From positions 42,511 to 106,510 of the IMG/VR virus record IMGVR_UViG_3300036760_001167: a stretch of 64,000 nucleotides of DNA. One strand, 5' to 3'. The DNA comes from a virus. Shown here one piece after another: positions 1 to 52,126 of this stretch. The translations under genes were made by a program, and so were the position numbers. The notes beneath the pieces are model-generated. The model did not search any database and was not told where the DNA came from. It saw nothing but the letters and a program-made list of their open reading frames with translations. The stretch's first letter is position 1. Every line of letters starts with the position of its first letter.

Positions 1-16
1 CACTCCGTCCACGCAT

Positions 17-920
17 GCTGCTCCGGCCTCACCCTTGCGGGCGGTGGTGCTGCGGCGCCCCGCTGGCGGCGGGCGGGTTGCGGGATCGGCCCGCCAAGTT
101 GTGCCCGCTGCCAGCGGGGCGCCGCAGGTTCCTAGCGGCGCCTTACTCCGCCAGCCGGGCGGCGGCGGGCGACGTGTCCTCCGGCCCGCCAGCTCCCCGA
201 AGGTCGCGATTACGCGGGGCGGTCGACTTCGCTGCCACACCGCCCGGATTCGGGCGGAGGTTCTGGCGGGACCGAGGGACGGCGGGCGGGTGCTACCGTC
301 CGCAGCGGCGTCGGCTCTTGCGACTCTCAGGGTTCGTCTGGGCATCTAGGATCTCGCGTTCCCGCGTCGCCGCGGGGCAGCACGTCCACAGCGTGCGCCG
401 CTTCACCAAGAGGGGAAACTATTCCGCCCAACCTGGGTCGGGAGTCTATCCGAGGCTTTACGACGACCTCGGTCCCGTTTCGCCGGACTTCACTTGACCG
501 GCTTCGAGAGCGGCGGAGGTTCCCGGCGTACGGAGAACATCTCCCGCCGAACTACCTCGCGCTCGCTCTCGGAGCCGTTCAGGCTCCGTGCGGCCGATCG
601 CTTGACCGGCTTCGAGAGCGGACCCGTGTGCCCACGTCCCTGGGGCTGCGCTCTCGCGCTCCCTGGGTTCCGGCTGGCCCAGCGCCTCTCGGCGCGCTGG
701 CGGTTCGGCCTGGCCTTGCACCTCTGGTCTCGCTCTCGGAGCCGTTCAGGCTCCGTGTCTTGGCGCTCGGCGGGGAGTACGATGCCCCGGAACTCAGGGG
801 GAATCCGGTCAGGCCCTGAGGGCCGCCGCGTACCTCCTGGAACCGCGGGCCCACTTCGCCCGCCGAGCCGGATCTGCTTCTGCCGCTCTGGCTTCCACGC
901 TCCGGTCTGTTCGCCTTACA
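17..920 (-). ncRNA. Putative large structured non-coding RNA (~900 nt) downstream of terminase large subunit
   Basis: No ORF with the phage codon bias. Promoter-like GCCGATAAT at 934-926. Many minus-strand hairpins with GNRA loops (GAGA, GCGA, GCAA), long-range 10-bp stems and an 18-bp perfect stem at 50-127. Confidence 0.55.
493..757. repeat. Two copies of a two-part repeat cassette (A at 493-513 and 601-621; B at 562-590 and 729-757); A is an imperfect inverse of B
   Basis: A = CTTGACCGGCTTCGAGAGCGG, exact twice. B = CTCGCTCTCGGAGCCGTTCAGGCTCCGTG, exact twice. Confidence 0.9.
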
Positions 921-925
921 TCATC

Positions 926-1021
926 ATTATCGGCAGCCGTGCCCCCGCAGCGTACCGGCCGAAGGGCCCGAGATCGCCTGGGCGTCGGCCTAGGCCGGAG
1001 GTCTAGTGTGGCGCGTACTAG
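926..1021 (-). promoter_or_regulatory. Conserved promoter cassette (-10 GATAAT with upstream CCTAGG and CTAGT-N9-ACTAG palindrome)
   Basis: ATTATCGGC recurs at 46483, 49190 and 51988. GGTCTAGTGTGGCGCRTACTAG is shared with 46557-46578. Confidence 0.65.
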
Positions 1022-2796
1022 ATCCTGATGCGCTGGCCCGGCTTCTTGGGCGCGGGCTTCTTCGCGCGGCGCCGCTCGTCGGCCTCGCGGCGGAGCCGGC
1101 GCGCGTAGGACTCCTGCGGCTCCGCGGGCTTCGGCTTCCGCTCGGGCCGCGGCGGCGCGGGCTGCTCCGCGGGCTCCGGCTGCGCGTCCTCGCCGGGCTT
1201 CGGGTCCGTCTCGCGCGCGTACGCGCTCCTCTTCTTGGGCTTCGCGCCCGCGGCGATCGCGTCGCCGCGCGCCTCCCACGACAGCGCGCCGGCCGCGGCG
1301 GCGTCGATCTTGTTCGGGGACATCGGCGCCTCCTTCGAGATCGTCCAGAGCTGCCGGCCCTCGTCGTCGTACGAGGCGATCGGCTTCCTCCGCGTGTTCT
1401 CGACGTGCCGCGCCATCACCTCGTCGCCGTCGTGCGTGACGTCGCCGGCCTTGATCGACGCGGCGTACTTGCGGACCATGATCGCGGCCTGCTTCGGCCG
1501 GGACATCAGCCACGCGACCACGACCTTGTCGCCGTACTTCCCCTGCCACCTGTCGAGCAGCGCCTCGATGTTCGCGTACTGCGAGCCGGGGTCGACGTAG
1601 ACGCGCCAGACCGACCAGGTCTCCATCGCCTCGGAGAGCGTGCCGTCGACCTCGTCGAAGTCGTGCTCGTAGTCGTCGTTCGCGGTCTCCGGCTTGGTCC
1701 AGATCCCGAGCGGCCACTGCCAGCCCGAGTCGACCTCGGTGGCGACCATCGCGAGCGCGTCCTCGTAGCGGGCGCCGTCGACGCCGACCGTGACCAGCGA
1801 GCCGGGCTTCGGCTGCTCCCGCTCCCTCTTGAGCTTGCGCCAGCGCTCCCCGTCGAACGCGCGGTCCTCGCCGGGCACCACGCGGTTGAGGAAGTAGCGC
1901 TCCGCCTGCGCGAGCTCGCCGCGCTTGAGGAGGTCGTCGATCTCGGACGAGATCCGCTCGGTGTCGACCCACCAGCTCGAGCCGTACAGGTTCCTGAGGA
2001 CGCGCATGCGCTCGCGCTTGTTCTTGATGGAGCCGCGGCCGCCCTTGCCCATCATCCTGAAGACGCCGACGCCGGACTCGTGGGTCGCCTGCGCGACGCT
2101 CTGCTCGCTCGGGTCCCACGCGTTGCCGGTCTCGAGGAAGCGGCCGCCCATGCCGGCCAGGTTGCGGCGCTGCGTGTCGGCGAGCTTGCGGCCGCCGTTG
2201 CGCTTGGTCCAGTCGTGCGCCTCGTCCTCGACCGCGAACGTGATCCGCTGCCCGAGCCGGCTCCGGGCGCTCGCGGTGACGGGCTCGATCTTGCCGCCGT
2301 TCGGGAGGTTGATCCTGGTCTCCCCGGTGTCCGGGATCTCCGCCTTGAGGTTGCCGAGCTCGATCATCGGCACCAGCGATCGCCAGACGTTGGCCGTCTG
2401 GTCCTCCGAGACCGCCGTGACCTGGATCCACGGCGTCGCCCACGGCCGGCCGACCGGCTCGCCGTCCGCGTCCCACCCGTCGAACAGCACGGGGCCGAAG
2501 GACTCGACGATGATCATGGCCGCGGCGAAGGGCCCCTTGCCGAGCTTCTGCGGCTCGACGATCTGGCCGCCGCGGTTGTAGCGGAACGCGCCGCTCGGCT
2601 TGGTCAGGTCCTTGACCGCGTCCGGCTTCAGCTCGTAGAAGTTGAGGACGAACTCCTGCTGCCAGTCCGACAGCAGGAACGGCTCGCCCGCGAACTCGCC
2701 GTCGGGGATGACGCACAGGTCCTGGATCGCGTCGAGCACTGCCCACCCGAGCGTCGGCAGCTCGCCCTCCGTGCGCGGCCCGCGCCAGCCCGTCAC
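1018..2796 (-). CDS. terL: Terminase large subunit
   Basis: TLGW N-terminus, Walker A PQKLGKGP, Walker B EDEAH, nuclease motifs GVDG and KIDAA; 592 aa. Confidence 0.93.
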   Translation of the reverse strand: MTGWRGPRTEGELPTLGWAVLDAIQDLCVIPDGEFAGEPFLLSDWQQEFVLNFYELKPDAVKDLTKPSGAFRYNRGGQIVEPQKLGKGPFAAAMIIVESFGPVLFDGWDADGEPVGRPWATPWIQVTAVSEDQTANVWRSLVPMIELGNLKAEIPDTGETRINLPNGGKIEPVTASARSRLGQRITFAVEDEAHDWTKRNGGRKLADTQRRNLAGMGGRFLETGNAWDPSEQSVAQATHESGVGVFRMMGKGGRGSIKNKRERMRVLRNLYGSSWWVDTERISSEIDDLLKRGELAQAERYFLNRVVPGEDRAFDGERWRKLKREREQPKPGSLVTVGVDGARYEDALAMVATEVDSGWQWPLGIWTKPETANDDYEHDFDEVDGTLSEAMETWSVWRVYVDPGSQYANIEALLDRWQGKYGDKVVVAWLMSRPKQAAIMVRKYAASIKAGDVTHDGDEVMARHVENTRRKPIASYDDEGRQLWTISKEAPMSPNKIDAAAAGALSWEARGDAIAAGAKPKKRSAYARETDPKPGEDAQPEPAEQPAPPRPERKPKPAEPQESYARRLRREADERRRAKKPAPKKPGQRIRI

Positions 2797-3670: not shown

Positions 3671-3970
3671 TCACAGCACCTCCCGGAGCCGGTCCGCGAT
3701 GTGCTGCGCCGTCGGGTCGCCCGCCGCCGCCTGCGCCCGCAGGATCGGCTCCGCCATGCGGAGGAGCTCCCTCGCCCGGCGCGCCTTGCGGACCTCGTCC
3801 CAGCGCTTGTGCTGCGTCGCGCTGATCTTGCCGGCGCGGTCGAGCGGCGCCGGCCGATCGCCCGAGCCTGAGCTCGCCGGCGGGTGATCCTCGGCCTGGC
3901 CATCCTGGGCTAGGTCGACCGGCCTAGGCTGCGCGCGGCCGGCCTGGCGCTGCCTGCGGGACCGTCCCAT
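3671..3970 (-). CDS. Hypothetical protein, probable leaderless first gene of packaging operon
   Basis: ATG lies 6 nt after GTAAGAT -10-like element (3983-3977). Confidence 0.5.
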   Translation of the reverse strand: MGRSRRQRQAGRAQPRPVDLAQDGQAEDHPPASSGSGDRPAPLDRAGKISATQHKRWDEVRKARRARELLRMAEPILRAQAAAGDPTAQHIADRLREVL

Positions 3971-3974
3971 GTAG

Positions 3975-4520
3975 CTATCTTACACCGAGTAACTCCCGGC
4001 CGGATCCCGTTCACAGGGGCTCGGGCCTACTACGCCGGTCGGTCGGTGAAAGACAGGTCTTTGCCAAGCCCCGCCCTCCATTCGGACGGTGACCTTCACC
4101 CAAGGACCTAGGCCGCGGCCTCAGCGACTACAGACCTAGGTCCTATCAGGCCGCGCATCGGACCTAGAAGACGTAGCTCAACGTGACGCCCGCCCGATGT
4201 GACTAGACCGATATGGCCACGGGCCCTGTGGCCTAGGGCGGCCGATCGGGCCGGCACGATCGGGCAGCCTAGGCCGTGTTGCGATCCGCGATCGCCCAAG
4301 GGCCTAGGCCGTCGACGCCCTGCGCGACGATCGGGCGGCCTACGCCCGGCGAGATCGAAGGGCCTAGGCCGCTCCCGTCTCTGGCGACTTTCCGCAGGCT
4401 AGGCCTTGCGGTCTTGCGGCGAGATCGAAGGGCCTAGGCCGGCGACTTTCGGGCCGGCGACTTCCGGCCTGTTAGGCCCGGCGACTTTCCGGCCGATAGC
4501 TGGCGACTTTCCGGGACCAT
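3975..4520. repeat. Candidate genome-end/packaging (cos-like) region with short repeats
   Basis: Lies between HNH/MTase and terS. Five GGCGACTT copies at 4383-4510, GCGAGATCGAAGGGCCTAGGCC twice, and about a dozen CTAG in 3900-4440. Confidence 0.55.
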
Positions 4521-5024
4521 GACCTGCCAGCGCCCGGGCAGCGGCTCCGGGTCGCCTGGCCGCATCACGACGATCGCGGGCGCGAACGGCGCCTGCACAC
4601 GCCCGCCGTCGAAGCGGATCCGGCCGCGGACCAGCCTCACCTCCGAGCCCGCGCAGCTCGCCTGCCACCACCGCGTCTCGGTGCGCGCGGGGAGCAGGCA
4701 GACGACCACGATCCCGCCGCGCGCCTCGAGCCTCGCGCGCGCGACGAAGTCCGGGGTGTGCTTGGAGTAGGGCGGGTTCAGGAAGGCGGCCTGCCCGCGC
4801 CTGGCCCAGCGGCCCGGCGAGAGCGCGTCGGCCATGAAGCCGCCGGGCCCGATCCACCGGGCGGCCTTGTGGTTGGCCTCGTTCGCGGCCGCGTCTACGG
4901 CGAAGCGGAACTCCCGGTCCAGCTCGTCGTAGAGCTCCCGCGGGGTCCCGTAGTCCGTCTTAGCCGCGGCGGTCGCCGGGTTCGCCCCGCCGAACGTCGT
5001 CGCGCTACCCCGGCCTCCTGCCAC
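4434..5024 (-). CDS. Phage DNA N6-adenine methyltransferase (Dam-like, PF05869-type)
   Basis: YGTP...LDREFRFAVDAAA, FLNPPYS, LLPARTETRWW, GRIRF. Confidence 0.88.
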   Translation of the reverse strand: MAGGRGSATTFGGANPATAAAKTDYGTPRELYDELDREFRFAVDAAANEANHKAARWIGPGGFMADALSPGRWARRGQAAFLNPPYSKHTPDFVARARLEARGGIVVVCLLPARTETRWWQASCAGSEVRLVRGRIRFDGGRVQAPFAPAIVVMRPGDPEPLPGRWQVMVPESRQLSAGKSPGLTGRKSPARKSPA

Positions 5025-9952: not shown

Positions 9953-12442
9953 TCACCGGGTCCGCGCCTGGTCCGCGCCGGTACTTCCGGTACTTCCGGG
10001 GATGCGGACGACGAAGAGCTTCGTCGTGACGAGGCCCCGGCCCTGCACCCAGACCTTCCGCTTCCTGGTGTCGCGACCCCGGTCGTGCGACAGCACGCCC
10101 TGCTCAGCCCACTTGTCGAGCACGGGCTTCGGGTCGCGCAGCCCCGCGTACTCGCGGAGGATCAGCGCGAGCGTCGACCGGCCGATGATCCCCACCGTGT
10201 CGTCGCCGAACCAGACGCCCCAGCGCTGCTGGCCGATCGGCTCCTCGTTCGCGGGGAAGAACCGGCCGCTGCCGAGCAGCGCCTCCTTCACCGCGTTGAG
10301 CCCGCGCTCGCCGATGTCGGCGCCCTCGTCCGCGCCGGACCTCTGCAGCTTCTCGAACACCGAGAGCGCCGCCCCCTCGAGCTCGCCGTACTCCACGCCG
10401 CGGCCGCAGACCCGCGCGAGCTGCGCGAAGCCCGCGACGCACGTCGCGACCTGCCCGGCCTGCGCGAGCTCGACCTGCTGGCCGCTGGCCTCTGGCGCCA
10501 TCTCGAGGAAGAGCCGCTTCTGGAGCGCGAGGAACTCGGCCGGCCGCGGGTCGCGCGCCAGCCACCGCAGCGGCCAGCCGTGCGCCCGCTGCGCCGACGC
10601 GAGCATCCGCAGGTGGGCGTCGACGTCGTCGGCGAGCGGCGAGTACAGCTCCATGATCCTGCGGCGCACGCCCGTCAGGCCGGACTGGATCGTCAGCCGC
10701 GCCTCGCCGGTCGACAGCACGCACGCGCTCCAGGTCGAGGTGCCGGACACGTTCCGGCCCGCGTTCCCCGCGATCTTCCGCTCGCGCCCCTCCATCAGGT
10801 TGAACAGCATCTGGGTGAACTGGTCCGGCTCGAGGCCGAGGTTCGCGGCCTCGTCGAACCAGACGGGCAGGACGCCGACCTGCTTGAGCACGTTCCCCGG
10901 CGCCTTCGCGGTCTGGTTCCACGAGCGGTAGAGCCGCCCGTCGGGGCGGCGCGCGTCGCCGAGCTGCTGGAACGCCATCTCCGCCGACTCGGACTTCCCG
11001 GTGTGCGACTCGCCGGTCACGTGGACCGTGAAGATCTGCTTGTCCTTCAGCAGCGTGACGTAGAGCGCGCCGAGCGGGAAGCCCAGCAGGACCGCGAGCT
11101 TCGGCCAGCCCGCGGCCTCGTCGACGACGTTCCTCCACTCGCGGCGCGCGTCGTCCTCCGCGACGTCGGCCGCGTCGCCGTAGACGACGAGCTCCTCCTT
11201 GCCCGGCGACGCCTCGAGCTCGCCCGGCACGCGCAGCTCGCCGCCGCGCCACTCCGCGCGCGTCAGCACTGGCCTCGTGCGGAACAGGCCCGACGCGCGG
11301 ACCGCCGACAGGAACTCCGCGACCGCGGCGCACTCGGCGGGCATCAGGTCCGGCCCCTCGAGCTCGGACAGGAGCTGCCCGCGCTTGTCCGCGGTCATGA
11401 ACGTCGACGGGACGACCATCCGCTTGGGCGCCGGGCCCGCTCCCTCGAAGGTCACGTCGTAGCCGCGCACCTGGCCGTCCTCGTCGACGAGCACCTCGTG
11501 CGGGACCACGTTGAACTGGGCGCGCGCGATCCACCTCTTGTCGCGCCTCTGCGAGAGCCAGCCGGAGCGGAACGCCCAGCCGAGCGAGTCGGTGTCGGGC
11601 GGGCGATCGGCGGCGGCGCGCCTCCGCGCGGGCCTCGCGCCGTCGGCCTCGAGGACCAGCGCCCTCAGCTCTGCGGCGGTCCCGCCGCGGTCGAGCCAGT
11701 CCGACACGTCCTCGCCGCGCGACTCCCGCTCCTCGAGGCCCGGCAGGTCGACGGCGACCGCGTGCACCCCGCGCGACGCGAGCGCGTCCATCGCCGCGGC
11801 CCGCGCCCGCTTGCCGTGCGCGTCGTAGTCGCGCAGCACGGCGACCCTGAACCCCTCGAGCTTCCTGGCCAGCTTCGCGGTCAGGTGCCCCTCCGACGGG
11901 GCCGTCGCCTGCAGCCCCTCGGCGCGCAGCCTGTCGACGTCCTTCTCGCCCTCGACGACGAGGACCCAGCGGTCCTTCTCGAGCGGCGGCATGTAGAGCA
12001 GCGGCCCCGGCTTGCGCGGCCTCCACCGGAAGTCCTTGCGCCAGCCGTCGGGCCACTCGTAGCGGACCTTGGTCGCGCCCTCGTACTCGTAGCGCGCGAC
12101 CTCGACCGCGCCCGCGTCCTCGGGCCGCACGCCGCCGCCGGGGTTGCGCGTCCGCCACAGCCGCCCGGCCTCGCGCGGCGGCGGCGCGGACCCGAACGCC
12201 TCGAAGATCGCGTCGACGTGCTCGCGGTCGCGCTCGCCGCCCGCGTCGAGGCCGCAGCCGCCCTTCCCGCTGAAGCAGTACAGCAGCGCCTCGCCCTCCC
12301 GCGATCGCTTCACCGCGAACGACGGGCTGTTCGAGCCGTCCCCTTCGCACACGGGGCAGAACGTGCGGAAGGAGCCGGCGCCCGACGGGAACGTCGGCCA
12401 GCCCCGGCCCTCGAGGAGCTCGAGCAGCTCGTCGTACGTCAA
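9953..12442 (-). CDS. DNA primase-helicase (Zn finger + TOPRIM + DUF927-like ATPase)
   Basis: CPVC; VVEGEKDVD and DYD TOPRIM motifs; GESHTGKS Walker A; LPVWFDE Walker B. Confidence 0.85.
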   Translation of the reverse strand: MTYDELLELLEGRGWPTFPSGAGSFRTFCPVCEGDGSNSPSFAVKRSREGEALLYCFSGKGGCGLDAGGERDREHVDAIFEAFGSAPPPREAGRLWRTRNPGGGVRPEDAGAVEVARYEYEGATKVRYEWPDGWRKDFRWRPRKPGPLLYMPPLEKDRWVLVVEGEKDVDRLRAEGLQATAPSEGHLTAKLARKLEGFRVAVLRDYDAHGKRARAAAMDALASRGVHAVAVDLPGLEERESRGEDVSDWLDRGGTAAELRALVLEADGARPARRRAAADRPPDTDSLGWAFRSGWLSQRRDKRWIARAQFNVVPHEVLVDEDGQVRGYDVTFEGAGPAPKRMVVPSTFMTADKRGQLLSELEGPDLMPAECAAVAEFLSAVRASGLFRTRPVLTRAEWRGGELRVPGELEASPGKEELVVYGDAADVAEDDARREWRNVVDEAAGWPKLAVLLGFPLGALYVTLLKDKQIFTVHVTGESHTGKSESAEMAFQQLGDARRPDGRLYRSWNQTAKAPGNVLKQVGVLPVWFDEAANLGLEPDQFTQMLFNLMEGRERKIAGNAGRNVSGTSTWSACVLSTGEARLTIQSGLTGVRRRIMELYSPLADDVDAHLRMLASAQRAHGWPLRWLARDPRPAEFLALQKRLFLEMAPEASGQQVELAQAGQVATCVAGFAQLARVCGRGVEYGELEGAALSVFEKLQRSGADEGADIGERGLNAVKEALLGSGRFFPANEEPIGQQRWGVWFGDDTVGIIGRSTLALILREYAGLRDPKPVLDKWAEQGVLSHDRGRDTRKRKVWVQGRGLVTTKLFVVRIPGSTGSTGADQARTR

Positions 12443-12921
12443 GCCGTGGCCCCGATCGGTCGGAGCAGGTCGAGGAAGAAGTCCGCGTGCCGGGGAGCGA
12501 AGAACTCGCGGCCGTGCGCCGGGAGGATCCCGGCGCGGCGCGCCTCGTCGAGCAGGAACCGCTCGAGGGCGCGTGGGTCAGGCACCCACTCCGCGTACAG
12601 AACCTCCTGGCGCTCGCGCTCCGACGACGAGTACGCGGCGAGCCTGCTCCGCATGGAAATCGTCCTGCCAACCTTCACCCACTCTGCGAAGTCGACGACG
12701 TAGACGAAGCCGCCGCCCTCGTAGGTGGGGCGGAGCCAGACCGAGAACCCGAGTCCAGCCGCGGCCAGCCGCCTGACCTCCGCGACCCCGAGCCGCTGTA
12801 CCGCGCCGTAGTGCCCGCCACTCGAGCAGTAGGAGTCGGCCCCCCTCGCAGTTACCGCATCCTGGCAGCCGAGAATGGAGCAGACCCTGTTGGTCGGCTC
12901 TCGCCTCCGCGCTCCGTTCAC
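12439..12921 (-). CDS. GIY-YIG superfamily (T5orf172-like) nuclease
   Basis: GFVYVV...VKVGRT...RL...LERFL...GREFF. Confidence 0.7.
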   Translation of the reverse strand: MNGARRREPTNRVCSILGCQDAVTARGADSYCSSGGHYGAVQRLGVAEVRRLAAAGLGFSVWLRPTYEGGGFVYVVDFAEWVKVGRTISMRSRLAAYSSSERERQEVLYAEWVPDPRALERFLLDEARRAGILPAHGREFFAPRHADFFLDLLRPIGATA

Positions 12922-46433: not shown

Positions 46434-46482
46434 TCTCTCGCCTCTCGCCTTGGAGCGCCCCCACGGCGCTCTCTATGCTTCT

Positions 46483-46578
46483 ATTATCGGCCCCGGCGGC
46501 CGATCGCCGCACCGGACCAAGGGCCGGAGTCGGCCCGCGGGCCGCCCTAGGCCGCAGGTCTAGTGTGGCGCATACTAG
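46483..46578 (-). promoter_or_regulatory. Conserved promoter cassette upstream of amidoligase
   Basis: GCCGATAAT plus CTAGTGTGGCGCATACTAG, as at 926-1021. Confidence 0.65.
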
Positions 46579-46699
46579 TCCGCCGGGCCTCGGGCGGCCG
46601 CCCACTCACCCGTGGGGCCGCCTTGTTCCGCTGCGCTGGCGGGGTCGGTCCCATCATCTCGGTGAACGGCCGCCCGACGCCTGCCGGGCTGCGCGGATC

Positions 46700-48898: not shown

Positions 48899-49183
48899 TC
48901 AGGAGTCCAGTCCGTGGAAGGGGTCTGCTTCGATCTTGGCCTGGAGGGCGGCGGCGGCGGCGGTGCGCTTCGCGTCCTGCGTGCGCTGCCAGTCCGCGGA
49001 GGCCGCTGCCTCGATGCGCGCGACGTGGCCGCTGTTGGTGACGACGCTGCCGTCCTCGCGGAGGAGCTCCCACATAGTGTCGCCCGCGCCCGCCGCGCGC
49101 TCGGTGGGCCGGATGGTGGCAACGCTCTTCGCGGTGTACCCCTTCGGCAACCTCATTCCCGTCTCCTTCTTCGTCGTGGTCAT
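48899..49183 (-). CDS. Hypothetical protein, leaderless
   Basis: ATG 6 nt after GATAAT (49195-49190). Confidence 0.65.
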   Translation of the reverse strand: MTTTKKETGMRLPKGYTAKSVATIRPTERAAGAGDTMWELLREDGSVVTNSGHVARIEAAASADWQRTQDAKRTAAAAALQAKIEADPFHGLDS

Positions 49184-49456
49184 GCTTCTATTATCGGCTG
49201 CGCGGGCCCTCCGGCGTACCGCCCGGAAGGCTGGTGTCTCGCAGGGGGCGGCCTAGGTCGAAGGGCCCGGGGAAGGTAAGGTTTCCTTACCTTCTCGCGC
49301 GAGGGTCTACGCTGCCGGGCCTGACCGCGGCGGAGCGCGGCGCGTGCGGGCCGACGCCCGCGCCTCTGTCGCTCGGCCTGTGCCAGTGCGGCGCGCCGCG
49401 CTGCCCGCAGCGCGGGTCGGAGCACTGGTCGCCGAGCGCCTCGCGCGGCGCACCGC

Positions 49457-50074
49457 TCATCCGCGCGCCTCGAGCTCGGCCTCGATGGCGGCGATCGCCT
49501 CCGCGTCGTCGTTCTCGCGGAGCACGTCGGCCAGCGTGCGGCGGAGCTTCTCGTCGCCCATCGACCCGAAGTTGCGGAGCCTCCCGCTCGGGCCGCGGCC
49601 GACGCCGGTCTTGATCTCGGGCTCGGCGTCCTCGTCCGTGCCGATCGGCTCGCTGTCCAGGCCCGTCGCGTCGCGCGCCTCGGGCGCCGCCGCGGCGGCG
49701 AGCATCCCGTCGAGCATGCGGCCCAGCTCCTCGTCCTTCTCGTCGCTCGGGTCCTCGCCGATGAAGACGACGCGGAGCTCTGCGACGCGGCCCTCGTCGT
49801 TGCGCCGGACGAAGACGGGGTACTGCCCGTCGCCGTACCCGCTCGAGACCACGATGCCGACGCCGCTCCCGCCGATCGCCTGCGCCACGTCGCTCATGGC
49901 GGTGTGCGGGCCGTGCTCCGCTGCCGCGCCGAAGCTCTCGGGCCAGGTGCGCTCGAGGAACTCCTGCCAGGTCTCGACGGCGCTGGTCGCGTCGCGCCCC
50001 TGCGTGTAGCACGGGTCGCCGACCATCACGCAGCCGGCGTCCACGCTGATCGTTCCTGCGCTCTCCCAAGTCAT
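49457..50074 (-). CDS. DUF4241-like protein
   Basis: VDAG..MVGDPCY...SGYGDGQYPV. Confidence 0.65.
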   Translation of the reverse strand: MTWESAGTISVDAGCVMVGDPCYTQGRDATSAVETWQEFLERTWPESFGAAAEHGPHTAMSDVAQAIGGSGVGIVVSSGYGDGQYPVFVRRNDEGRVAELRVVFIGEDPSDEKDEELGRMLDGMLAAAAAPEARDATGLDSEPIGTDEDAEPEIKTGVGRGPSGRLRNFGSMGDEKLRRTLADVLRENDDAEAIAAIEAELEARG

Positions 50075-50785
50075 CTCGCTGCCTCCTGTTCCGCGCGCCT
50101 CCGCGCCTCCCACTCCTCGATGGTGCTGACCCGGACGGGATGCACCTCGCTGTCCTTGACGCGCCACGGGACGACGCGCCGGCCCTTCGGCCCTTCGCAC
50201 CGCACAAGCGACTCGCCCATGCCGCGCTTCGCCTCCGACCACTTCGCCTTGGCCGCGGGCATCAGGCACCTAGCGCCTTCGCCGCCGCCTCACCCGCGTC
50301 GTCGACGTACACGATCACGGCCCTGGTGGCGCCCGCCGATCGGGCGACGGACTCTAGCGCGCCGGACAAGCCCGGCGCGAGCTCCTCACCCGCGGGCAGC
50401 TCCAGCGCCAGCATGACGCATGACCTCGAGCCGCGTGAGCTCGAGGGCCCTATCTCCCCGCGGCGCGGACCCTGTCGCGCGCGTACAGCGAGGCCGAGCT
50501 GGCCGAGTACCGAGCAGGACTGACCGCGCGGTACGCGCGGCTCAGCGGCAAGAGAGGAGCGCAGCATGAAGACGGAGGCAGAGGAGCGGGAGCAGCGGCA
50601 CGCGCGCTGGGACCGCGAGCACCACGCGGCGATGGCGGCTGTGAGCCGTTGCTTCCGCTCGACGAGCGAGTCGAACCACGCCTGCCTTACGCTCTTACGC
50701 TCGTGGCCGCGGGCGCACGTCGCCAGGTCGGAGTTCATGCGGTCCAGCTCGCGGCAGATCCTGCAGTCGCGCTGCTCGGTCGCCA

Positions 50786-51700
50786 TTAGATGGTCGCCGC
50801 CTGGTCGGCCACTGTGCAGTCGGCCGCGGCCTTGTCGGTGCGGACCCGCTTGAACTGCGGGTGCCGCAGCCCGCCGGTCGGCATGAGCCCCATGTGGGCG
50901 ATCTCGACGACTTGCCCCTTGAGGCTGCCGCCGCGCCACGCGGCGGTGAAGCTCGCGCGCTCCGCGTCGTCCATGCCGCTGCACTGGCCTTGCTCGACGA
51001 GGACGCCGTCGGCGTCGAACTGGCCGAAGACCAGCGCGCCGACCTGGTTGAGGAACTTGCCCTTGCCCTCGGTCGCACCCATCAGCACGACGTCCGCGGT
51101 CCACGTCGCCTTGACCTTGAACCAGCCCGCGCCCCGCTTGCCGCTCGCGTACCGCGCGCCCGGGTCCTTGACGATGGCGCCCTCGAAGCCCTGCGCGATG
51201 AGCTCGGCGACGCGCGCCTCGCTGTTCTCCCACTGCGGCGCGATCTGGATGCAGGCCGCGAAGTCGTAGGCGGAGAGGGCCGCGTCGAGGAACGCGCGGC
51301 GGTCGCGGAGCGGCAGCGCCCGCGTGTCCTTGGAGTCGAACTCCAGGACGTCGAAGACGACGTACGTGATGCGCGCCTCGAGCGGGCGGTAGGAGTCGCT
51401 GCCGAGCACCTGCTGCGCGATGCCCCAGTCGTTCGTGCAGTCGTCCTTGAAGCTGCACGCCTCGCCGTCGAGCCAGGTGCCGACGGGCAGCGCCATGAGC
51501 TCGGCCTCGACCGATCGCAGGAGGCCGCTCTTCTCGGCGCCGCTGCGCGCGAAGATCCGCACGCGGTCCGTGTCGCGGTAGGCGTAGATCCGGTGTCCGT
51601 CGTACTTGATCTCGAGGAGCGTGCAGCGCGCGAGGTCTGCGGGCTTCGGCTTCCCGGCCAGCTGGCCGAGCGCGTTGACGCGCGTCTCTTCGGGCCTCAC
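50786..51700 (-). CDS. ATP-dependent DNA ligase
   Basis: EIKYDGHR, LDGE, VFDVL, EGAIVK, WFKVK, LRHPQF..VR.DK. Confidence 0.92.
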   Translation of the reverse strand: MRPEETRVNALGQLAGKPKPADLARCTLLEIKYDGHRIYAYRDTDRVRIFARSGAEKSGLLRSVEAELMALPVGTWLDGEACSFKDDCTNDWGIAQQVLGSDSYRPLEARITYVVFDVLEFDSKDTRALPLRDRRAFLDAALSAYDFAACIQIAPQWENSEARVAELIAQGFEGAIVKDPGARYASGKRGAGWFKVKATWTADVVLMGATEGKGKFLNQVGALVFGQFDADGVLVEQGQCSGMDDAERASFTAAWRGGSLKGQVVEIAHMGLMPTGGLRHPQFKRVRTDKAAADCTVADQAATI

Positions 51701-52126
51701 GACTTCGTCGCCTTGTTCGTCGCTGCTCCGCAGGTTGGGCAAACGTTCTTCGGCATCTCTGCCGCGAGCCACTCCATGCCCTTGGCGGGCGCGAGCGGCT
51801 TGTGCGTGCACTTGTTCACGGTGCGCTCCTAACGGTAGGCGCGGCGGAGGCCGCGCGCGAGTGCTGCGGTTATCTGGTCGGAGGAGAGCGCGCCGCGCGC
51901 GGGCTTCGCGGCGGGGCGCTGCGCGGCCGCGCGGCGGAGCCCTCTCACGATTGCCTGGCGGGTCTGCTCGTTCGTCCTCATGCCTTCATTATCGGCTCTT
52001 CGGGCCGTGCGGAGGATGGGCCTATCGGGCCGTCTTCTGGCGGCCGGCGGCCTAGACCCTTGGTCCAGTATAATCACGGCCGAGTGATTCCAAGCCAGAT
52101 GGCCGTCGCTTTCAAGGGATAGCAAC

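Follow-up and report, generated by a model that had tools for sequence, protein, structure and literature searches.

An uncultured sediment phage with a high-GC, actinophage-like genome carries, directly after terL, about 0.9 kilobases (kb) of non-coding DNA that, with a probability of roughly 0.5, is transcribed into a modular, structured RNA. Such an RNA would represent a very long leader or else the precursor of processed non-coding RNA, and it would form part of a lineage-specific accessory unit between terL and the portal gene. The phage is represented by the 106,510-base pair (bp) IMG/VR virus record IMGVR_UViG_3300036760_001167, of which bases 42,511-106,510, here called the window (64,000 nucleotides, nt), were analyzed; the stretch in question is the minus strand of window positions 20-919, and positions with the prefix C1 are record coordinates. 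The stretch does not code for protein, follows a promoter cassette, folds more strongly than expected, is enriched in hairpins with GNRA tetraloops (N, any nucleotide; R, purine) on one strand only and lies in a block that is inserted relative to the closest relatives of the phage.

The non-coding character is evident from codon statistics. In the real genes of the phage, including terL and its neighbours, the GC content of third codon positions (GC3) amounts to 0.93-1.0. Over the approximately 1.15 kb between the terL stop codon and the next strong gene (about C1:42360-43527), the GC3 frame plot is flat and the highest phase reaches 0.68-0.90. In full agreement with the first-pass annotation, which had seen no codon-biased open reading frame (ORF) in these ~900 nt, GC3 is at most 0.90 and the six longest ORFs yielded no Pfam matches. 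Remnants of the relatives' genes were not detected inside the stretch either, and with neither GC3 periodicity nor a Pfam match nor a trace of such genes, a coding gene or pseudogene was rejected. The first gene beyond it to have a strong ribosome site begins at an ATG at C1:42,350, 160 bases past the window edge. Apart from the tRNA array, positions 20-919 constitute the longest non-coding stretch of the 106.5-kb phage. Two more long stretches without third-position GC periodicity are found at window 49999-50851 (852 nt) and window 3811-4591 (780 nt).

The DNA of the stretch is real and not an artefact. It is covered by a single 13-kb contig at a depth of 83, and the sediment metagenome of a second study contains identical pieces from the same strain at low depth. 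The sole difference in that metagenome is a 3-nt deletion at window 460 (one unit of tcgtcg), which falls inside the predicted loop of the hairpin at 472-450. Two sediment DNA runs contain the stretch, one of them probably being its source, and no RNA sequencing run with it is listed.

The second line of evidence comes from the sequence that separates terL from the stretch. Here, the element GCCGATAAT had been reported on the minus strand at 934-926 and again before the ATGs at 49183 and 51981. It is present as claimed, and the same 9-mer lies 7 nt ahead of each of the two start codons. The sequence GCCGATAA occurs in six copies in the genome, all six of them on the minus strand, intergenic and at the end of a cassette that is about 95 nt long. 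When the six cassettes are aligned, CTAGG, G-T-x-C and GCCGATAAT are invariant. Four of them begin precisely at the upstream stop codon (CTAGT), and in the same four the distance from CCTAGG to GCCGATAA is constant at 54 nt; in the cassette next to the stretch, this spacer contains a small hairpin and a CGGTAC box. In two of the six, an ATG follows exactly 7 nt after GCCGATAA, a geometry that suggests leaderless mRNAs for the genes at 49183 and 51981 and supports a -10 role. On the basis of this exact spacing we take GCCGATAA as a putative -10 box, which would place the start of the unit next to terL at about window 919. Transcription of the minus strand is to be expected because the genes around the stretch all reside on this strand, as do all GCCGATAA cassettes.

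Promoters of the sigma-28 type (FliA/SigD/WhiG), including those for actinobacterial WhiG, have the consensus -35 TAAA and -10 GCCGATAA (PMC8325347). The phage cassettes resemble them in having a perfect 8-of-8 -10 box in all six cases and a start distance that suits the two leaderless genes. They differ in that TAAA does not appear ~15 nt upstream, where the cassettes instead have a CGGTAC/CGGTGC box 16-17 nt upstream, and in that GATAAT could equally serve a housekeeping sigma factor. A phage-encoded sigma factor was rejected, as none was recognizable in a region-2 domain search. The six cassettes are a second and more solid result of this work and provide a testable map of the accessory transcription units of the phage.

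Folding exceeds chance expectation in part. The 925-nt minus-strand RNA reaches -506 kcal/mol compared with -449 ± 11 kcal/mol for shuffled sequences (z = -5.3), and six consecutive segments of 20-919, cut at domain borders, yield z-scores from -2.0 to -6.6. Among 119 windows of 450 nt sampled genome-wide, the halves of the stretch occupy the first two ranks in energy excess, with -25.6 and -29.5 kcal/mol; the remaining 117 windows have a mean of -2.4, a standard deviation of 8.2 and a minimum of -23.5 kcal/mol. The best strand-specific signal is the content of GNRA loops. The GNRA-capped hairpins pointed out in the first-pass annotation were confirmed: with stems of at least 4 bp, the minus strand carries six and the plus strand none, while shuffled sequences contain 0.95 ± 0.96 and not one of 500 reaches six. 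This count is also the genome-wide maximum, since only windows overlapping the stretch attain five or six against a background of 0.91 per kb.

Other strongly folding windows of 150 nt, mostly located in genes, were noted at window 11941-12540, C1:23101-23550 and C1:35101-35250 (z from -3 to -5). Perfect hairpins of 12-13 bp with 4-nt loops at C1:23151-23180 and C1:32727-32754 are likely terminators.

The predicted fold is a string of approximately nine hairpin domains and not an ornate nested core (Table 1). At the 5' end, segment 760-919 with Domain 1 has z = -2.0, and chance alone can also produce a closing stem of such length. Domain 1 is followed by two tandem modules with identical A openings and nearly identical B closings around unrelated cores of 107 and 48 nt. 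The elements A1, B1, A2 and B2 share one 21-bp sequence, which occurs four times with its orientation alternating, and the A/B modules exceed what chance would produce; other copies of these repeats were not found in the phage genome. In the first module, the 6-bp hairpin of A1 has a probability of 0.97, B1 also forms a 7-bp hairpin with the linker, and pair probabilities for B1 are 0.98-0.99; segment 614-760 has z = -4.2 on the minus and -2.8 on the plus strand. In the second module, the rod formed by A2, core 2 and B2 has helix probabilities of 0.81-1.00, and segment 480-614 has z = -5.2. The corresponding values for segment 280-480 are -2.2 on the minus and -0.9 on the plus strand. The perfect 18-bp stem previously noticed at 50-127 proved to be longer, extending to 25 bp with one mismatch and, beyond that, to approximately 29 bp as a rod. 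No other perfect hairpin in the genome is as long, and of the six segments the one with this rod (20-130, z = -6.6) folds most strongly. No U tract follows the rod, and it may represent a 3' end, a stabiliser or a site for a double-strand-specific nuclease. The motif CCCGCC is enriched seven-fold in the stretch.

Two candidate functions of the repeats were considered and rejected. An attenuator-like switch between the pairings A1:B1/A2:B2 and B1:A2 is disfavoured by approximately 29 kcal/mol relative to the tandem fold in a rough constrained fold with partly mis-indexed forced pairs. A CRISPR-like mini-array does not agree with the irregular repeat spacing of 167 nt and 108 nt.

Table 1 Features of the stretch downstream of terL, and copies of the promoter cassette. 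Window coordinates unless prefixed with C1.
Feature	Position	Strand	Description
Promoter cassette	926-1021	-	terL stop CTAGT, CCTAGG, 54-nt spacer, GCCGATAAT at 934-926
Cassette copies in window	926-1021, 46464-46591, 49171-49298, 51969-52096	-	
Cassette copies before window	C1:41940-42067, C1:39540-39667	-	
Putative transcription start	919	-	7 nt after GCCGATAA, by analogy with the two leaderless cassettes
Domain 1, irregular 102-nt hairpin	766-867	-	9-10-bp closing stem, pair probability 0.99
Repeat A1, 29 nt	729-757	-	29/29 identical to A2; hairpin GGAGCC-UGAAC-GGCUCC, then GAGAGCGAG
Core 1, 107 nt, branched	622-728	-	two GAGA-capped hairpins, GNRA loops starting at 690 and 655
Repeat B1, 24 nt	598-621	-	23/24 identical to B2; pairs with A1 via GAGAGCG/CGCUCUC
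Repeat A2, 29 nt	562-590	-	identical to A1
Core 2, 48 nt	514-561	-	with A2 and B2 a nearly continuous rod over 112 nt
Repeat B2, 24 nt	490-513	-	contains CGCUCUC, as B1
Hairpin CCGAGG-loop-CCUCGG	450-472	-	probability 0.99
Domain with 16-bp stem	290-383	-	competes with local hairpin CCCGCG-GCGA-CGCGGG
Branched 93-nt domain	182-274	-	helix probabilities 0.75-0.90; segment 130-280, z = -2.25
Rod hairpin, ~29 bp	50-127	-	18 bp perfect, A.C mismatch, 6 bp, internal loop, 5 bp; probability 1.00
Hairpin CGCCC-GCAA-GGGUG	30-43	-	GNRA loop, predicted fold
Start of 49-codon ORF	1-16	-	GGAG, then ATG at 16-14; runs beyond the window to C1:42377

In principle, the stretch could also specify one large ornate non-coding RNA of about 0.9 kb of the GOLLD/ROOL kind, in which GNRA loops dock into helices and a compact or multimeric particle is formed. 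GOLLD and ROOL are large ornate RNAs of phages and prophages, similar in size to the stretch, and their structures show RNA-only assemblies (PMC12286853). The length, the position behind an own promoter, the six GNRA loops on one strand only and the large fold excess over the whole length would suit such an RNA. In contrast, no known family accounts for it. Rfam 15 at gathering threshold reported only 17 tRNAs, which lie elsewhere in the window, while GOLLD, ROOL, HEARO, OLE and raiA were unmatched, as were group I/II introns, RNase P, tmRNA, 6S, Y RNA, riboswitches and self-cleaving ribozymes. At E values up to 10 for positions 1-1100, and up to 1 for the extended unit, only matches to generic microRNA-precursor hairpins appeared, with 20-29 bits against thresholds of 54-79. 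The earlier statement that the sequence could not be matched to known large phage RNAs thus withstood a check with covariance models, in which no family reached its threshold within the stretch.

The stems proposed to connect distant parts of the RNA fare less well. In 1.08 kb, four perfect inverted repeats of at least 10 bp were observed compared with a mean of 1.87 in shuffled sequences (P = 0.10), and the longest chance repeat in the latter is usually 10-11 bp. The named stems GCTCGGCGGG/CCCGCCGAGC (765-774/859-868), GGGACCGAGG/CCTCGGTCCC (267-277/467-477) and CTCAGGG/CCCTGAG (820-814/799-793) are indeed present, but stems of this kind occur at chance frequency. Neither the long-range 10-bp stems nor the 7-bp stem therefore carry any weight. 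The fold is predicted to consist of local domains in a row, no terminator was found, small ORFs follow directly, and a conserved core is not demonstrable for an orphan sequence. We thus consider a single ornate RNA unlikely, and nothing tested favours it over a modular one. Just as doubtful appears a new phage RNA of ~0.9 kb outside Rfam that would be built from tandem cassettes with the same closing stem and different cores, knit into a particle by its GNRA loops and driven by a sigma-28-like promoter. Since the chain of domains lies directly before small ORFs, a modular leader or processed precursor fits at least as well. The original idea of a new large phage non-coding RNA accordingly holds with regard to the absence of coding, the credible promoter, the one-strand GNRA loops and the fold excess, but not with regard to a single GOLLD/ROOL-like fold, given long-range stems at chance level and a chain of local domains.

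The repeats can also be read as double-stranded DNA, with the A/B sites and the 25-bp inverted repeat serving protein binding or recombination. Candidates would be an operator or iteron array, a replication or partition site, an invertible switch or two tiny inserts resembling miniature inverted-repeat transposable elements (MITEs). Sites read by sequence are suggested by repeats that are identical around unrelated cores. Both strands fold equally well, as inverted repeats in DNA would, the helix imperfections give the sense strand no advantage, and a protein weakly matching helix-turn-helix (HTH)/excisionase proteins is encoded 1.5 kb downstream. The GNRA enrichment, however, is strand-specific and would be meaningless for duplex DNA; because GNRA loops are an RNA feature, it favours a minus-strand RNA over a DNA element. 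Moreover, the fold excess reaches well past the repeats. A replication origin was rejected on the grounds of GC skew, which is monotonic and shows no turn at the stretch. Searches near the stretch revealed no recombinase, integrase, nuclease partner or reverse transcriptase; the lack of the latter led to rejection of a retron or diversity-generating retroelement. An inverted or excised form was not encountered in the contigs of the two metagenomes. An invertible switch or MITE was rejected as well: inverted repeats are present, but a recombinase is lacking in the neighbourhood, the contigs show no joint at which the strand changes, and no further copy was found. The absence of the A motif from IMG/VR, the JGI metagenomes and 185,579 species genomes indicates that it is not a spreading mobile element. 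Taken together, a function as a DNA element is quite unlikely.

Related phages differ in the arrangement of this region. TerL is encoded at window 1018-2796 on the minus strand. Its best identity among 5.8 billion predicted proteins is 72%, and the closest cultured match, that of Streptomyces phage Kromp, reaches 42.6% at best. A prophage relative that could point to a host was not found via TerL in genome contigs. Among relatives with readable contigs, the two closest are L007 (71% TerL identity) and L008 (65%); in both, a small ORF and then the portal gene come after terL. In the present phage, the portal gene resides at C1:30,945-29,167, 12.5 kb farther from terL. Because terL and the portal gene are nearly adjacent in both relatives, we regard the block of about 12.5 kb (C1:30945-43527) as an insertion. 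It contains small genes, a gene for the HTH/excisionase-like protein, rtcB and pilin-like genes, and the non-coding stretch makes up its first 1.1 kb. The downstream proteins of 59 and 182 amino acids have no relatives in IMG/VR.

Such a block raises the question of whether the stretch is a functionless spacer, left behind by the recombination that brought in the 12.5 kb and bearing a few fortuitous or terminator-like hairpins. This would account for an orphan sequence within an orphan insertion and for long-range stems at chance frequency; GC-rich DNA folds strongly in any case, and other windows, coding ones included, have similar local z-scores. Phage genomes are compact, yet the stretch surpasses in length all other non-coding stretches of this phage except the tRNA array. 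Both of its halves top the genome in energy excess, a dedicated copy of the promoter points into it, and GNRA enrichment and perfectly kept repeats are unexpected in decaying DNA. We therefore judge a mere spacer to be distinctly unlikely.

Two further observations concern the genome at large. The gene following the portal gene (C1:26980-29163) comprises 727 codons, whereas its homologue in L007 has 326. It consists of two parts that match L007, separated by ~1.3 kb of extra sequence; as the latter is in frame, it is a domain block that was inserted rather than an intron. The "direct terminal repeat" of the record measures only 64 bp (C1:1-64 and 106447-106510). Owing to this short length, it probably is an assembly overlap, and the record a circular or permuted genome and not one with a physical terminal repeat.

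Several results weigh against a transcribed, structured RNA. The stretch has a lower folding energy than both its dinucleotide shuffles and the genomic background, but the plus strand does equally well (z = -7.2), and on a fixed 150-nt grid the stretch is unexceptional, ranking only 56th of 705 with several coding windows scoring better. Note that segment borders were chosen from the minus-strand fold, which introduces a slight bias toward this strand. Read directly, the three imperfect positions in the long helices are all A.C on the minus and G.U on the plus strand, a hint of three events that is too small in number to be weighed. With long-range stems at chance frequency, nothing binds the domains into a single fold. 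As to transcription, the -35 TAAA is absent from all six cassettes, sigma-70 promoters were not found for the stretch, and a search for an intrinsic terminator (hairpin plus U tract), which a moron would possess as its own, was negative. Homologues are likewise missing. Blastn in distant mode found none in 50,697 phage records and 72,556 plasmids, and exact and degenerate patterns of repeat A, repeat B, the low-GC centre, the 5' end and the promoter cassette do not occur in IMG/VR. Repeat A is also absent from JGI metagenome contigs and the 185,579 GTDB species genomes. Homologues beside related terL genes, which the first-pass annotation had suggested collecting, were sought with blastn and nhmmer in TerL-anchored loci from IMG/VR, metagenomes and genomes, and none emerged. 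With no homologue in any of these collections, there is no evidence from covariation or conservation.

We nevertheless favour a lineage-specific, non-coding transcription unit that would act at the RNA level. In this model, the cassette with its sigma-28/WhiG-type -10 box GCCGATAAT would start transcription of the minus strand at approximately window 919, and the first 870-900 nt of the transcript would code for nothing. Some nine hairpin domains, several of them capped by GNRA tetraloops, would be strung along the RNA, with two neighbouring modules presenting identical A/B closing stems around different cores and a terminal rod of ~29 bp at 127-50. The product would be a very long structured leader or, alternatively, a precursor that is cut at the long duplexes into stable RNA pieces. 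Start point, RNA ends, processing and any regulatory role are thus what we infer from the features described above.

If the RNA is a leader, it may set the expression of the small genes behind it. Three tiny ORFs (49, 59 and 41 codons) follow the stretch before the next promoter cassette. The first of these had been suggested as the start of the next gene on the basis of GGAG and an ATG at 16. The motif is there, but the ORF encodes only 49 amino acids, its GC3 of 0.84 falls short of the 0.93-1.0 of real genes, and it has no match among Pfam or PHROG families. Possibly it is a leader ORF, or it is not translated at all. A hairpin is predicted at C1:42359-42399, 111-151 bases before the window start, in which CCUUCUC pairs with the Shine-Dalgarno sequence GAGAAGG with a probability of 0.88. 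CCUUCUC lies at the end of the 49-codon ORF, within its last codons, and GAGAAGG belongs to the 59-codon gene. The Shine-Dalgarno sequence of this gene can thus pair within the proposed transcript, and the predicted hairpin is a possible candidate for translational coupling of the two reading frames. Segment -160 to 20, which contains these downstream ORFs and the coupling hairpin, is not significantly structured (z = -0.4).

The unit invites comparison with three kinds of known systems. Morons, described by Hendrix and colleagues, are independent transcription units located between conserved late genes of tailed phages. Like them, the stretch resides in a block inserted between two genes, terL and the portal gene, that are neighbours in L007 and L008, and it has its own promoter-like cassette. 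Unlike them, this first unit carries mostly non-coding RNA as its cargo instead of a protein gene, and no terminator was found. Long structured leaders are known in phage operons, the lambda-type late leader being an example. The arrangement of a promoter, a long folded untranslated region and then genes on the same strand is shared; the stretch is, however, far longer (~0.9 kb), it is located behind terL, and it lacks recognizable antitermination elements.

To our knowledge, large structured phage RNAs are few and the functions of almost all of them are unknown. As a single sequence without relatives, the stretch is valuable not as an established RNA but as a clearly bounded candidate whose transcripts could be mapped and whose structure could be probed chemically. 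If our reading is correct, expression and probing should be straightforward, thanks to its own promoter and to an unusually modular build in which different cores share their stems. It differs from GOLLD and ROOL in matching neither model in sequence or structure, in its distance from tRNA genes (the tRNA array of the phage is 52 kb away) and in its architecture, a predicted chain of hairpins without homologues for which a conserved multi-junction core is not demonstrable. What it has in common with them is that they, too, are phage-borne, non-coding and rich in helices, measure several hundred to approximately 800 nt and have an unknown biological function. A further, unrelated example from a high-GC phage of the actinobacterial type would, if true, widen this class of large phage RNAs.

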